Below, piece after piece: positions 8,199 to 62,807 of a stretch of 64,000 nt of DNA. This stretch comes from an uncultured cyanobacterium (GTDB lineage Bacteria > Cyanobacteriota > Cyanobacteriia > CAKZMO01). Both the position numbers and the translations under genes were made by a program. The notes below the pieces were generated by a model. That model was not told the DNA's origin. It saw only the letters and a list, made by a program, of their open reading frames with translations, and did not search any database. Location of the stretch: assembly GCA_963719515.1 (NCBI GenBank), contig CAVRCJ010000014.1:64001-128000 (forward strand). The letters are read 5' to 3'. Within the stretch, counting starts at the first letter, position 1. Each line of letters opens with the position of its first letter.

Positions 8199-8404
8199 AA
8201 TGAGAGAATCCTGTGGGAGTGCAACAGTTGCCAGGTATAGCAAACGTCCTGATGCATTGGGACATTTGCGCGTTCAGTTGCCGACACAGCGTCGGGCTTT
8301 CAGCCGACTCTGGTGTCCTAAGCAACTGAGCCAATGCAATATAGCTCGGCTATAGCGTAGAGCTATCATATGACAGGAGAACCTGCTTCGCCAAAGATAG
8401 GCGC

Positions 8405-9154: not shown

Positions 9155-9310
9155 TGAGAAGCACCGAGGGACGTGACATCCTCCCGACGCTGATGCTACG
9201 CATACAGCGCGGGCTTCCTCAGTGACTCCCAGCTACCGCTGAGACATTTCCTGAGAGATTAAGGGCTTGATGTCCCACAGCCCTATTCAATAGGTTGATA
9301 GCCGCGTTGT
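9155..9310 (-). ncRNA. putative omega/reRNA overlapping the tnpB 3' end, with guide from the right flank
   Basis: Established TnpB architecture; scaffold conserved in the second copy; limits approximate. Confidence 0.6.
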
Positions 9311-10415
9311 GGTCGCGGCAGATCGTTAAGCCGCATGACGGGCAACTATGGACCCGATCGGCCAGCGTCTTTGGTACCCGCTCACCACAACCCGAGCAAT
9401 CAATGCTGGTTCCGCGTGGGTTCTCAGCGATGGTCATCTTTCCAGCTTTCGCGGCTTTGAAAGAGCCTATCTCCAAGAATGTACCCCATGCGGCATCAGC
9501 GATTGACTTTGCCAGTCTGGTTCGAGCAAGTCCTTTGATGTTGAGCTTTTCATGAGCGACAACATCGTACTTTGAAAACAGCCAATCCCACACCTTAGAA
9601 AAGAAATCACGGCGCTGACGCGATATCTTTAGGTGTAGTTTGGCTATACGATTCACCTGCTTACGCCAGCGGTTAGAGCCCTTCTTCTGTCTCGATAGCT
9701 GCCGCTGCAGCTTGGATAGCTGCCGCTCTGAGCGTCGAAAGAACTGAGGGATAGGAACGCTCTCACCGTCACTGGTAACCAAGAAATCCTTCAGCCCAAC
9801 GTCAACACCGACAGACTTAGCCCTATCGACATCCGGAGTAAGCATCGGAACGGCATTGTTTTCCAGTAACAGGCTCACATACCAACCATCTGCTTTGCGA
9901 GTCACCTTGGCCGTTTTGACAGTAAACCCATCAGGTATCGGGCGATGAAGGATTAGCTTCACCTGGCCAATCTTAGGCAGGGTAATACGACTTCCATCGA
10001 TGCAGTCAGGTTTCATCTGCGGGAACGTGAACGTCCTGTAGCGCCCCGCGCCTTTGAACCGAGGCTTGCCGCTACGCTTACCGTTTTTATCACCTTTGAT
10101 GAAACGCTCGAACGTCTGCTTTACCTGCTTCGTCACCTCCTGAAGCGCTTGTGAGTGCAAATCTTTGTACCAGGGTCGCTCTCGCTTGAGAGGTACTAGG
10201 CTAGCCTTCTGGCTGTAGTAATTAGGATTATCTTTGAGTGGCGCAAGGCTACAGGTGAGTGGGCAGGCGTTGACCGAACAGCGGTTCATCTCCCACCAGT
10301 CGAAGCGCTCAGCCAGCAACCAGTTGTACTGTGCCCGAAGCATGTCTAGCCATCGGGTCATGGTAACCGTTTGCTCAGCCGCTGGACGCAACTTGTACTG
10401 ATAAGTGACTTTCAT
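9219..10415 (-). CDS. tnpB: RNA-guided endonuclease TnpB
   Basis: MKVTYQYKLRP N-terminus, GKPRFK, RuvC GVDVG / HEKLN / RDHNAA, zinc ribbon CSGC..CPSC; start ATG 10415. Confidence 0.95.
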   Translation of the reverse strand: MKVTYQYKLRPAAEQTVTMTRWLDMLRAQYNWLLAERFDWWEMNRCSVNACPLTCSLAPLKDNPNYYSQKASLVPLKRERPWYKDLHSQALQEVTKQVKQTFERFIKGDKNGKRSGKPRFKGAGRYRTFTFPQMKPDCIDGSRITLPKIGQVKLILHRPIPDGFTVKTAKVTRKADGWYVSLLLENNAVPMLTPDVDRAKSVGVDVGLKDFLVTSDGESVPIPQFFRRSERQLSKLQRQLSRQKKGSNRWRKQVNRIAKLHLKISRQRRDFFSKVWDWLFSKYDVVAHEKLNIKGLARTRLAKSIADAAWGTFLEIGSFKAAKAGKMTIAENPRGTSIDCSGCGERVPKTLADRVHSCPSCGLTICRDHNAAINLLNRAVGHQALNLSGNVSAVAGSH

Positions 10416-10448
10416 GCAATAATGATAGCATATTGACATCAGAACGAC

Positions 10449-10631
10449 ATGCAGCAAATAACTATTAGAGCCGCTGACAGAGAAAAGCAGCATCTTGACA
10501 AGTATTGTGAGATGACCGAAAGAACTATCAACGATGTCCTTAGGGAGTACATCCGAAGTTTGGCCGTCTCCGGGGCATTGAGCCCCATCGACGACCGCGA
10601 CTCTCATCCCGACGCTCACCCTGACGGGTAG
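10449..10631 (+). CDS. CopG/ribbon-helix-helix DNA-binding protein inside the IS
   Basis: MQQITIR beta strand followed by helices (EKQHLDKYC; TINDVLREYIRSL). Confidence 0.75.
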   Translation: MQQITIRAADREKQHLDKYCEMTERTINDVLREYIRSLAVSGALSPIDDRDSHPDAHPDG

Positions 10632-10655
10632 AGCGCGGGGCTTCCTGTCTAGTAG

Positions 10656-33433: not shown

Positions 33434-33700
33434 CCCCTAATCTGTCTCCCTAGGCGCTCTCGCTACGCCCTGTTCTAGAGATATTGCATTGGTTCAGTTG
33501 CTTAAAACGAAATCTGCTGAAAGCCTGACGTTGTGTAGGCAACTGAACGCGCAAATATCCTAATGCATCAGAGCATTTGCTATATCAGCCAGGATGAAAC
33601 GGTCTTCTCAACGCGGCTAGCCTTACCCCTTGCCGCGTTACCCTGGTTACCGGTGTCGCTCAATAGGTCAGCAGCGTCTCACGGTAGCCGGTTATTGGCG

Positions 33701-40059: not shown

Positions 40060-40767
40060 CTATGCCGTCACTAGCTCGGGTTGAGGGCGCTTGCTGTTGC
40101 GAATGTCCTCGATTGCCGTGGCATAATCATCCGCTTTAAACACGGCTGACCCGGCCACGACGGCGTTGGCGCCTGCCTCTAGCACCTGCCAGGTGTTGTG
40201 GGACTTGAGACCGCCGTCGACTTCAATCCAGGGATCGAGGCCCCGCTCGTCGCACATCTGGCGCAGCTTCTGAATTTTGGGGAGCACGCCAGGAATGAAG
40301 CTCTGCCCACCAAAGCCAGGGTTGACGCTCATGATCAAAATCAGATCGCAAACTTCTAAGACATAGTCAATTAGATCTAGGGGCGTTCCAGGATTGAGGA
40401 CGACTCCCGCTTTTTTGCCCAGCTCTCGAATTTGGCACAGGGTCCGGTGCAGGTGCGGAGATGCATTGTGCTCACAGTGGACGGAAATCATGTCGGCTCC
40501 GGCCTTGGCGAAGCCCTCGACGTACTTCTCAGGCTCAACGATCATGAGGTGAACGTCGATGGGCTTTTGGGTCATGGGCCGAATCGCCTCGACAATCAGA
40601 GGACCAATGGTGATGTTGGGGACAAAGCGACCATCCATCACGTCCACGTGAATCCAATCTGCGCCGGCTTTATCGACTGCTTTGATCTCTTCACCAAGGC
40701 GGCTGAAGTCGGCTGACAAAATCGATGGGGCAATAACAATGGGCTTAGTAGATTGAGTTTGGGTCAT
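40060..40767 (-). CDS. rpe: ribulose-phosphate 3-epimerase
   Basis: [31 protein letters not shown]. Confidence 0.97.
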
Positions 40768-40849
40768 AGCGCAACGGGTCCTCTGACATCCTATCTGTAA
40801 GCTTATTTTAACAAATTACGGTTTTGATGCGTTTGGTAGCGGAGATAAC

Positions 40850-41241
40850 GTGACATCCTCCCGACGCTGACAGCAAGCTGTACAGCGCGGGCTTCCTCAG
40901 TGACTCCCAGCTATTGCCGAGACATGTCCTGAGATAGGTTTATACTCCGCCTGATGCCCCACGGCAGAGTTTTGAATTTTCATCTCCGCGAGGGAGGATA
41001 CGCACTATGTGTCGCAGATACATTTGCAAACTGAGGAACGGGTGACTTGCAGCTTTCGCCTACGGGCCCGTCACACTCTTTGCGGGGTGTATCACCTTGC
41101 TATCTCTATCATACCAACTGCTAGCCTCAGCGCTGAGCGCACTATCCGCTGTGCATCATTTTGCGGGCGCACTTCGGCTAGCGCGACTCTCATCCCGACG
41201 CTCACCCTGACGGGTAGAGCGCGGGGCTTCCTGTCTAGTAG
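40850..41241 (-). mobile_element. non-autonomous IS200/IS605 derivative (PATE/MITE), 392 bp
   Basis: 41182-41247 is identical to 10596-10661; 40848-40933 is nearly identical to 9171-9255; no tnpA or tnpB. Confidence 0.9.
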
Positions 41242-41373
41242 CTAAAAATTGTTCATCGGAGCGCGATCGCCTTCCCCAATGCTGAAATAAAATCGCTACC
41301 CTGTGGATAGTGCAGCGGCCTATAGAGCGGCCTGTAACAGCTGCGCTACAGCGAAAAAGCTAGCCTCAACGAT

Positions 41374-61790: not shown

Positions 61791-62807
61791 TTACCACAGG
61801 CCGCGGACGGGCTGAGTCGTCGCTGCAGGCTGAGTCGTAGTCACTGTGGGTTGAGTTGTGGTCGTGGTCGTGGTCGTGGTCGACTCCATTTCCATCTCAG
61901 ACTCCATTCCCATGTCGGAGTCCATCTCCATCTCAGACTCCATTTCCATGTCGGAGTCCATTTCCGAGTCCATTTCGGAGCCCATTTCCATTTCCGAGTC
62001 CATGTCGGAGTCCATTTCCGAGTCCATTCCCATGTCGGAGTCCATGTCGGAGTCCATTCCCATGTCGGAGTCCATCTCAGACTCTCCCTGTGCCTCCAGT
62101 TCATTCTGCGTACTTGGACCGTCCGTCATCTCGGTCTCCGTCGGCTCGTCGAGCTCAGATTCTCCGTCAGACTCCATCTCAGACATCGTTATGCCCGGAT
62201 TGACGGACATCATCATGCCATCGTCGGCCATGATGGCGACTATAGTGTCATCTGAAATCAGCAGCGAGATATCATCGCCGGGGTTCAAGCTCAGGCCAGC
62301 AATCTCTGACGAGCCGACGTTGATCACCTCTAAGCCGCTGGTGTCCTCACGGTCAACGCGAATCGTGCCAAAGTCAGGATCAATCTCGCGCACGGTAGCG
62401 GATACAAACATAGACATGGGCGCTGCAGTCGGCTCACCGATGGGTCCAGTGTTGACCGCCATCATCATACCGCTCTCGCTCTCGGAGATAGCGATAACGT
62501 TGCCGTCGCGGATGACAAGGTCAACCATATCCCCTTCTTTCAAGGTGGCAACGTCTTCTTGGCCCACATAGATAACTTCTAGCGTCCCGGTGTCTTCGCG
62601 GTCGACGCGAATCTCGCCAAAGTCCTCATCCACGTTCCGAACTGTACCAGAGACGGTCATAGCCATCATGCCCATCTCTTCAGAAGTCTGAGCCATGAGT
62701 GACGGTGCTGTACCCTCGACACTAATAACCTCTTGCGCGAAAGCAGGCGCAGCAATAAACGAAGCCGCTGCCGTAGAGGCAAGTAGGACAGAACGTAAAG
62801 ATACCAT
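61791..62807 (-). CDS. secreted Met/Asp/Glu-rich repeat protein ending PVRGLW
   Basis: GGGAG RBS, signal peptide (APAFA), duplicated ~70-aa domain, MDSDMG/MESEME repeats, Thr run. Confidence 0.85.
   Translation of the reverse strand: MVSLRSVLLASTAAASFIAAPAFAQEVISVEGTAPSLMAQTSEEMGMMAMTVSGTVRNVDEDFGEIRVDREDTGTLEVIYVGQEDVATLKEGDMVDLVIRDGNVIAISESESGMMMAVNTGPIGEPTAAPMSMFVSATVREIDPDFGTIRVDREDTSGLEVINVGSSEIAGLSLNPGDDISLLISDDTIVAIMADDGMMMSVNPGITMSEMESDGESELDEPTETEMTDGPSTQNELEAQGESEMDSDMGMDSDMDSDMGMDSEMDSDMDSEMEMGSEMDSEMDSDMEMESEMEMDSDMGMESEMEMESTTTTTTTTTQPTVTTTQPAATTQPVRGLW
61858..62085 (-). repeat. coding tandem repeat (6/12/18-bp units) plus GTGGTC x4
   Basis: GAGTCCAT(T/G/C)TC.. units on the + strand encode M-D/E-S-D/E. 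Confidence 0.9.

Follow-up and report, generated by a model that had tools for sequence, protein, structure and literature searches.

Can a mobile element without a protein gene serve as a stand-alone source of omega-RNA for a TnpB encoded elsewhere in the same genome? The question is raised by a 392-bp element on the minus strand at positions 40850-41241 of the window, the 64,000-nt stretch of DNA from an uncultured cyanobacterium that was analysed here. The element is flanked by rpe on one side and by an aldo-keto reductase gene on the other. An initial annotation had placed it in a three-part arrangement in which TnpA is encoded elsewhere, TnpB comes from a tnpB element of the window, and the gene-less element contributes only RNA. 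The analysis below indicates that the element is almost certainly a mobile, non-autonomous IS200/IS605 element (PATE). It probably also encodes a stand-alone TnpB omega-RNA that acts in trans as proposed. Its least ordinary feature is an undescribed 5' RNA domain, which the initial annotation passed over.

A search of the whole host genome (G000; 5.28 Mb in 21 contigs) returned 53 full-length copies that are 96-100% identical and whose flanks are all unrelated to one another. In the relative G002 the orthologous site upstream of rpe is empty, and the alignment is continuous across the junction. The differing flanks and this empty site together fix the boundaries of the 392-bp element. The region upstream of rpe is also empty in G003 and G004, at a divergence too high for the junction to be read. 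TTAG precedes and TCAC terminates every copy, and both the copies and the G002 site place insertion 3' of TTAG without target duplication. TTTAG precedes 47 of the copies, compared with 34% among all TTAG sites. Only eight copies lie inside ORFs of at least 150 codons, whereas 390 of 600 background TTTAG sites do; the removal of harmful insertions would produce such a deficit. The copy sequences fall into 33 distinct versions, and most copies are less than 1% diverged. The ORF-less character of the element also held up, the longest ORF on its own strand being at most 34 aa; a small protein in the interior was rejected because a 28-aa ORF is out of frame in G004. Relatives of the element are found in G002 (93%) and G004 (86%, interrupted by a contig end), and a search of phage sequences did not find it. 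The excision joint was not seen in the contigs of four sequencing runs, which drop rare variants. Compared at the level of sequence, the copies show many past moves, precise insertion after TTAG and retention of both TnpA hairpins with their DNA guides.

Each end carries a subterminal hairpin with a 4-nt DNA guide that matches the cleavage site. In IS608, guide AAAG pairs with target TTAC (PMC3201880). At the left ends compared here guide and target covary: AAGC accompanies TTAG in this element family, in the tnpB family and in a second gene-less family, AAGT accompanies TTAA in other families, and CAGC accompanies TGAG in G008. At right ends, GAAG is found with TCAC. Guide-target covariation at the hairpin feet thus fixes the 392-nt boundaries independently. 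The left 66 nt, counted inward from 41247, had been described as identical to the tnpB element at 9173-10655; they are, and six of these nucleotides belong to the flank. The commonest left end of the element (24 of 53 copies) also occurs in 13 of 16 tnpB-only copies, and it differs from those of G002, G004 and the tnpA copies. This sharing suggests that left ends may have been exchanged within the host genome.

Right-end-only pieces of about 93 nt, lying directly after TTTAG and lacking a left end, were observed in genomes of other cyanobacterial families: G050 (L236, L240, L244, L248), G022 (L237, L241) and G074 (L239). They begin just behind an internal TCAC of the full gene-less element, which suggests that TnpA cut there as a second site, with one hairpin used for both ends. 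Matches of 99% to the G050 scaffold that had been expected to be tnpB elements turned out to be these fragments. Two search patterns did not find such pieces in G000.

Table 1. Features of the gene-less element and of its tnpB-bearing sister element (coordinates of the window).
Feature	Position	Strand	Remarks
Target motif TTTAG, predicted TAM	41242..41246	-	In the flank, outside the element; TTAG in 53/53 copies, TTTAG in 47/53
Left end, with TnpA hairpin at about 41194-41225 and DNA guide AAGC at 41229-41226	41182..41241	-	Exact match to the left end of the tnpB element at 9173-10655
Promoter-bearing spacer	41117..41181	-	Common to other gene-less elements of the host genome
Extended -10, predicted start near 41101	41108..41116	-	Same place in G002 and G004, with other letters
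5' RNA domain	40975..41101	-	Near-invariant core 41037-41072; homologues found with model R3 at 32-44 bits
Omega-RNA scaffold	40850..40969	-	Stem 1, A-rich linker, stems 2-4, pseudoknot of 40958-40953 with 40857-40852
Right-end hairpin 40860-40891, DNA guide GAAG 40895-40892, TCAC end	within scaffold	-	
Predicted guide of 16 nt, supplied by the flank and located upstream of rpe	40834..40849	-	Position by analogy with ISDra2 (PMC10097598)
tnpB-only sister element	9173..10655	-	Same left end, related right end; likely TnpB source in trans
tnpB, 398 aa	9219..10415	-	RuvC motifs DVG, HEKL and RDHN intact; Pfam PF01385, PF07282, PF12323
60-aa divergent ORF, ribbon-helix-helix-like, in place of tnpA	10449..10631	+	Pfam RHH_1 at E 0.022, below cut-off

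The right end holds the scaffold, as had been claimed, beginning 120 nt from the end. A covariance model (R1) was built from ten tnpB right ends of other cyanobacteria, with this element and the resident tnpB family left out. The element scores 56.3 bits (E 1.7e-14) over the full model, the tnpB end of the window 71.2 bits, and other gene-less families of the host genome 31-35 bits. The last 120 nt match the resident tnpB end in 93 of 121 columns, and the last part in 74 of 85, and despite this divergence all helices are kept. In stem 1, four of six pairs are changed on both sides with pairing retained; the pseudoknot and stem 3 differ from the resident end only by A-U to G-U changes, and the tip of stem 4 is rebuilt. 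The scaffold folds with a z of -4.7. By model and alignment, then, it is structurally intact, with the caveat that retention is an ambiguous sign of an omega-RNA for the right-end hairpin, which would be kept for TnpA anyway. After stem 1 the scaffold has 7 nt more than its counterpart in the resident tnpB end. This longer linker was rejected as an exclusive trait of gene-less elements, as it also occurs in tnpB-coupled copies in G280. Among 400 other genomes, 11 contain a match to a stem 1 pattern. Because the scaffold has diverged and the interior is unrelated, the element does not derive from the resident tnpB element by simple deletion. It therefore represents an older lineage, also present in G002 and G004.

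The guide would be taken from the flank, and the two differing guides given in the initial annotation are indeed flanks seen in the whole-genome copy search. No guide among the 53 copies has more than ten matching bases after TTAG elsewhere in the genome, where about three such self targets were expected (P about 0.04), a weak result whose control, with only 16 non-IS605 repeat copies, failed. At this locus rpe follows in the same direction, its start codon 82 nt beyond the right end of the element (window 40767-40849), so read-through from the element promoter could reach it.

Which proteins could serve the element was examined in the host genome. It has 14 matches to Y1 transposase (PF01797), three of which lie on elements with cognate ends. 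These three IS605 elements of about 1.8 kb have the same right end and a left end 89-92% identical to that of the gene-less element. Their TnpA keeps the HUH and Tyr motifs, and one copy is without the ATG of the other two. The three cognate TnpA (G000:C1:305130, C5:98556, C10:313500) carry KYC where two other TnpA of the host have KYR. As to the tnpB genes of these elements, the one in the C1 copy contains a frameshift and the one in the C5 copy is missing 7 residues. TnpB loci reaching the C-terminus number 77, in about 15 groups. Among the TnpB families listed, only the 21-copy group that includes the window's tnpB has a matching end. Three of its loci carry tnpA and about 18 are tnpB-only; all three RuvC motifs are kept in 17 of the 21, and compatibility with the element was judged by scaffold likeness only. 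The 60-aa ORF of the tnpB-only copies has a C-terminal tail in common with the TnpA of the full copies. Arc-like genes adjoining tnpB have been described (10.1101/2023.11.20.567912).

Each part of the proposed arrangement is accordingly present: TnpA elsewhere, intact TnpB loci, and an RNA-only element with an intact scaffold. The copy number and the cognate tnpA, which the initial annotation had suggested looking for with the ends, came to 53 copies and three tnpA on elements with the same right end. What did not stand is its scale, since the parts amount not to one pair but to 53 gene-less copies, 21 tnpB loci and three tnpA-bearing elements. Among other genomes, G004 supports the pairing of element and TnpB: it holds the mini-element and, where a contig breaks off, a right end belonging to this tnpB family. 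Against the pairing, a close TnpB was not found with this query in G002 (best 33%), none was found in G050 or G083 at 1e-40, and the best TnpB in G022 (ten contigs) reached 38%, where the one readable end, L252, is unrelated. All four genomes carry such elements and three of the four assemblies are fragmented; collapsed repeats can explain the missing TnpB in these, less easily in G022.

IS605-like elements make up most of the large repeat families of G000, which has 81 matches to the TnpB zinc finger. Other repeats of the window include an inverted intergenic pair at 8229-8360 and 33463-33591 (79 nt at 85% plus 42 nt at 79%) and, at 61867-62100, low-complexity sequence that lies within overlapping ORFs and is arrayed in units of 12 and 18 nt.

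The extended -10 reported at 41116-41108 was found again at that position, and a strict two-hexamer scan returned no promoter on the element's strand. It occupies element position 126 in three genomes, with differing letters. All 12 gene-less elements examined have a loose -10 pattern at the corresponding position and, judged by eye, so do those of G050, G083 and G022. The spacer upstream of it is 71% identical over 76 nt to G000:C7:179723-179798, and it is the least conserved fully covered part relative to G004 (15 differences in 64 columns). Twenty sequencing runs hold part of the stretch, three of them RNA, and contigs of two RNA and two DNA runs were compared with the element. Contigs from two metatranscriptomes cover 40939-41080 and 40850-41059 of the interior, each about 90% alike; they are unstranded, come from relatives and are possibly DNA, one run also covering the left end upstream of the promoter. 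They are a hint of transcription, no more. Transcription of the element is considered likely.

If it were not, or if its RNA had no partner, the element would be a passive PATE that is mobile through TnpA, its scaffold guiding nothing and being kept as a single-stranded DNA structure or by recent expansion. One strand is both the RNA and the TnpA substrate, the low divergence of most copies leaves little time for decay, and the 93-nt pieces of G050 and G022 have spread without promoter or stem 1. The RNA contigs, moreover, come from relatives of this strain. Against this, double changes and G-U pairs preserve stem 1, the pseudoknot and stems 2-3, none of which belongs to the TnpA hairpin, and the -10 is retained in place across lineages. 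A purely passive element is for these reasons quite unlikely.

The 5' domain occupies about 130 nt between the predicted start and stem 1, and it was matched to no Rfam family: Rfam gave two chance hits far below the gathering score on this copy and none on the G050 copy. A known ribozyme, riboswitch or other known RNA family was rejected on this ground. A remnant of tnpB or of a full element was also rejected, as tblastn with 27 TnpB-like proteins gave nothing below E 0.27 and blastn gave matches of at most 14 nt, all of them at E 0.99 or above; that same search revealed nothing antisense to tnpA or tnpB. A domain model (R3), built from four same-genus copies, was searched against 150 other genomes of the class. 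It matched G002, G004 and four genomes of four other cyanobacterial families, namely G050 (44 bits), G074 (42 bits), G083 (38 bits, eight copies) and G022 (32 bits). All eight distant domain loci read are gene-less, and seven show the left end after TTAG plus the -10. Searches for the domain core in viral contigs and in 330 further genomes of the phylum gave no match, nor did a search for the domain in plasmids. A 20-nt interior motif had two metagenome matches and the 5' motif two viral ones, all of which were rejected as chance.

In a model-fitted alignment of seven sequences 98.8% of cells pair and nine of 25 pairs change on both sides, beyond what any of 500 shuffles or any slid control gave, for an alignment that spans two lineages and was fitted to the model. 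When the seven domain copies were aligned by plain MAFFT, nothing but the inner hairpin was recovered, and pair counts among three same-genus copies did not reach significance (161 of 500 shuffles). Within the 36-nt core most unpaired bases are kept, while the stems swap and the tetraloop varies freely. Invariant unpaired bases beside a free tetraloop are the typical look of binding or catalytic sites.

Such a core raises the question of whether the 5' domain itself, as a ribozyme, ligand sensor or protein-binding RNA that the element spreads, is the main product, and the scaffold a tail that is secondary or can be exchanged. Several observations would fit. Among the 53 copies the domain is as invariant as the scaffold (diversity 0.003 and 0.004, compared with 0.036 for the left end), its homologues in the four other families are joined to a scaffold with only 71 of 124 columns alike, and cognate TnpB was not found in G050, G083 or G022. 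This alternative is nonetheless unlikely. The domain stands directly before an omega scaffold in all seven domain-bearing genomes and at all eight distant loci read, it matches none of the Rfam ribozymes and riboswitches, and it folds no better than shuffles (z -0.5). Furthermore, the gene-less elements of genomes with the stem 1 pattern have other 5' domains, each shared by more than one genome, or none (L180).

Three or four further conserved 5' domains were observed on gene-less cyanobacterial elements (L177/L181/L182; L016/L183/L179; L173/L178; L176); the first three are each common to two or three genomes, and none matches Rfam. In G000 itself, no fewer than four additional families or variants of gene-less IS605-type elements were seen, among them family C (6 copies), family D (14-20 copies) and single copies (G000:C10:332120-332545, C3:735158-734706, C7:179640-180080, C1:7090-7545, C4:101930-102378). 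Most of them share the promoter spacer, and their 5' domain and scaffold differ. Homology between the present domain and that of the C elements was not established: the C model ranks the domain first in the window at 12.6 bits (E 0.89), the reverse test gave 10.2 bits, and an unrelated locus scored 12.3 bits. Within G000, two families have one scaffold type and different 5' domains. These varied combinations indicate that promoter, 5' domain and scaffold behave as exchangeable modules. A broader reading, which we put forward tentatively and only as a whole, is that cyanobacterial gene-less IS605 elements are modular RNA-only parasites built of a left end, a promoter, a conserved 5' domain of one of several kinds, and a TnpB scaffold that can be exchanged. 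In the present family this domain would then be a functional RNA, whether catalytic, ligand-sensing or protein-binding, that sets the timing of guide maturation or helps the guide RNA to win TnpB over the RNA of the tnpB elements themselves.

For the element itself, the preferred reading is that of a PATE with a stand-alone omega-RNA, and it would work as follows. TnpA from the three full IS605 copies would excise and re-insert the element. Its own extended -10 promoter would give an RNA of about 270 nt consisting of the 5' domain, the scaffold and then the flank-derived guide. TnpB from the resident tnpB copies would load this RNA and cut TTTAG plus flank at excised sites. The cut empty site would be repaired from another chromosome copy, so that the element is restored, as in the model of Meers et al. 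(10.1101/2023.03.14.532601). The 5' domain would replace the tnpB message that otherwise precedes the scaffold, and would most likely protect the RNA or position it to capture TnpB made elsewhere; this step is the weakest of the proposed mechanism. That the RNA guides this particular TnpB is rather likely.

The same RNA could also bind TnpB to the opposite effect. As decoys, 53 self-promoted scaffolds would occupy TnpB, direct it poorly and lower the activity of the tnpB elements. The copies do outnumber the matching tnpB loci by 53 to 21, the scaffold differs in stem 1 and its linker, and the 5' domain could conceivably hinder activation. But the pseudoknot next to the guide is intact, and the shared target motif makes each guide valid for an empty site. 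A pure decoy would also bring the element no retention benefit, and such a role is very unlikely.

With three tnpA-bearing, about 18 tnpB-only and 53 RNA-only copies and one target motif, the host genome is a clean test case for the role of standalone omega-RNAs. Should the 5' domain stabilise the guide RNA or regulate it, TnpB guides would have a natural accessory module, and the domain would form a new family of structured RNAs. Should it have no effect, the element is a good but ordinary PATE.

The original cases of standalone omega-RNAs were those of IscB, with the guide at the 5' end. Relative to these, the present element is of the TnpB type with a 3' guide, and its function in trans is predicted. 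It resembles the standalone omega-RNAs of OMEGA systems in being a mobilised omega-RNA without effector or transposase, the effector being present in the genome (PMC10691335). Standalone omega-RNAs have been reported to work in trans, and their biological role is there called unknown (PMC10691335). PATEs, too, often encode omega-RNAs for use in trans (Meers et al., 10.1101/2023.03.14.532601). The closest counterparts are the PATE-like elements of the Geobacillus stearothermophilus ISGst families, which likewise have no protein gene and both TnpA ends (10.1101/2023.03.14.532601). Their omega-RNAs need TnpB from other elements, and a few tnpA copies serve many non-autonomous ones, as here. The present case differs in having 53 copies of one family, a conserved promoter of its own, a diverged scaffold and a conserved 5' domain, none of which is mentioned in the relevant passages of that report.

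The omega-RNA of ISDra2 TnpB is similar in its core of about 116-120 nt with four stems and a pseudoknot next to a 16-nt guide (PMC10097598). ISDra2 TnpB needs the 116-nt core, while the 5' part is dispensable, and TnpB guides are degraded without their protein (PMC10097598). That dispensable 5' part is tnpB message, whereas the present element has a non-coding, conserved domain under its own promoter. The ends resemble those of IS608 in their subterminal hairpins, with 4-nt guides at the feet and cleavage outside the element on the left and inside it on the right (PMC3201880). IS608 has a TTAC target and a TCAA end, compared with TTAG and TCAC here. IStrons and their PATE likewise have a structured RNA fused before a TnpB omega-RNA within a transposon (10.1101/2023.11.20.567912). 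In contrast to these, the domain here is about 130 nt long and follows an internal promoter. Assignment to the IStrons was rejected, as the domain has no Rfam group I intron match and the element ends in C rather than G. In the parts of the literature covered, no conserved 5' domain is described on TnpB-type standalone RNAs, and subscription papers and supplements may hold one. The RNA-only scheme is therefore right in outline but already in print, in the form of PATEs and standalone omega-RNAs. What is new here is the copy number, the modular build and the undescribed 5' domain.
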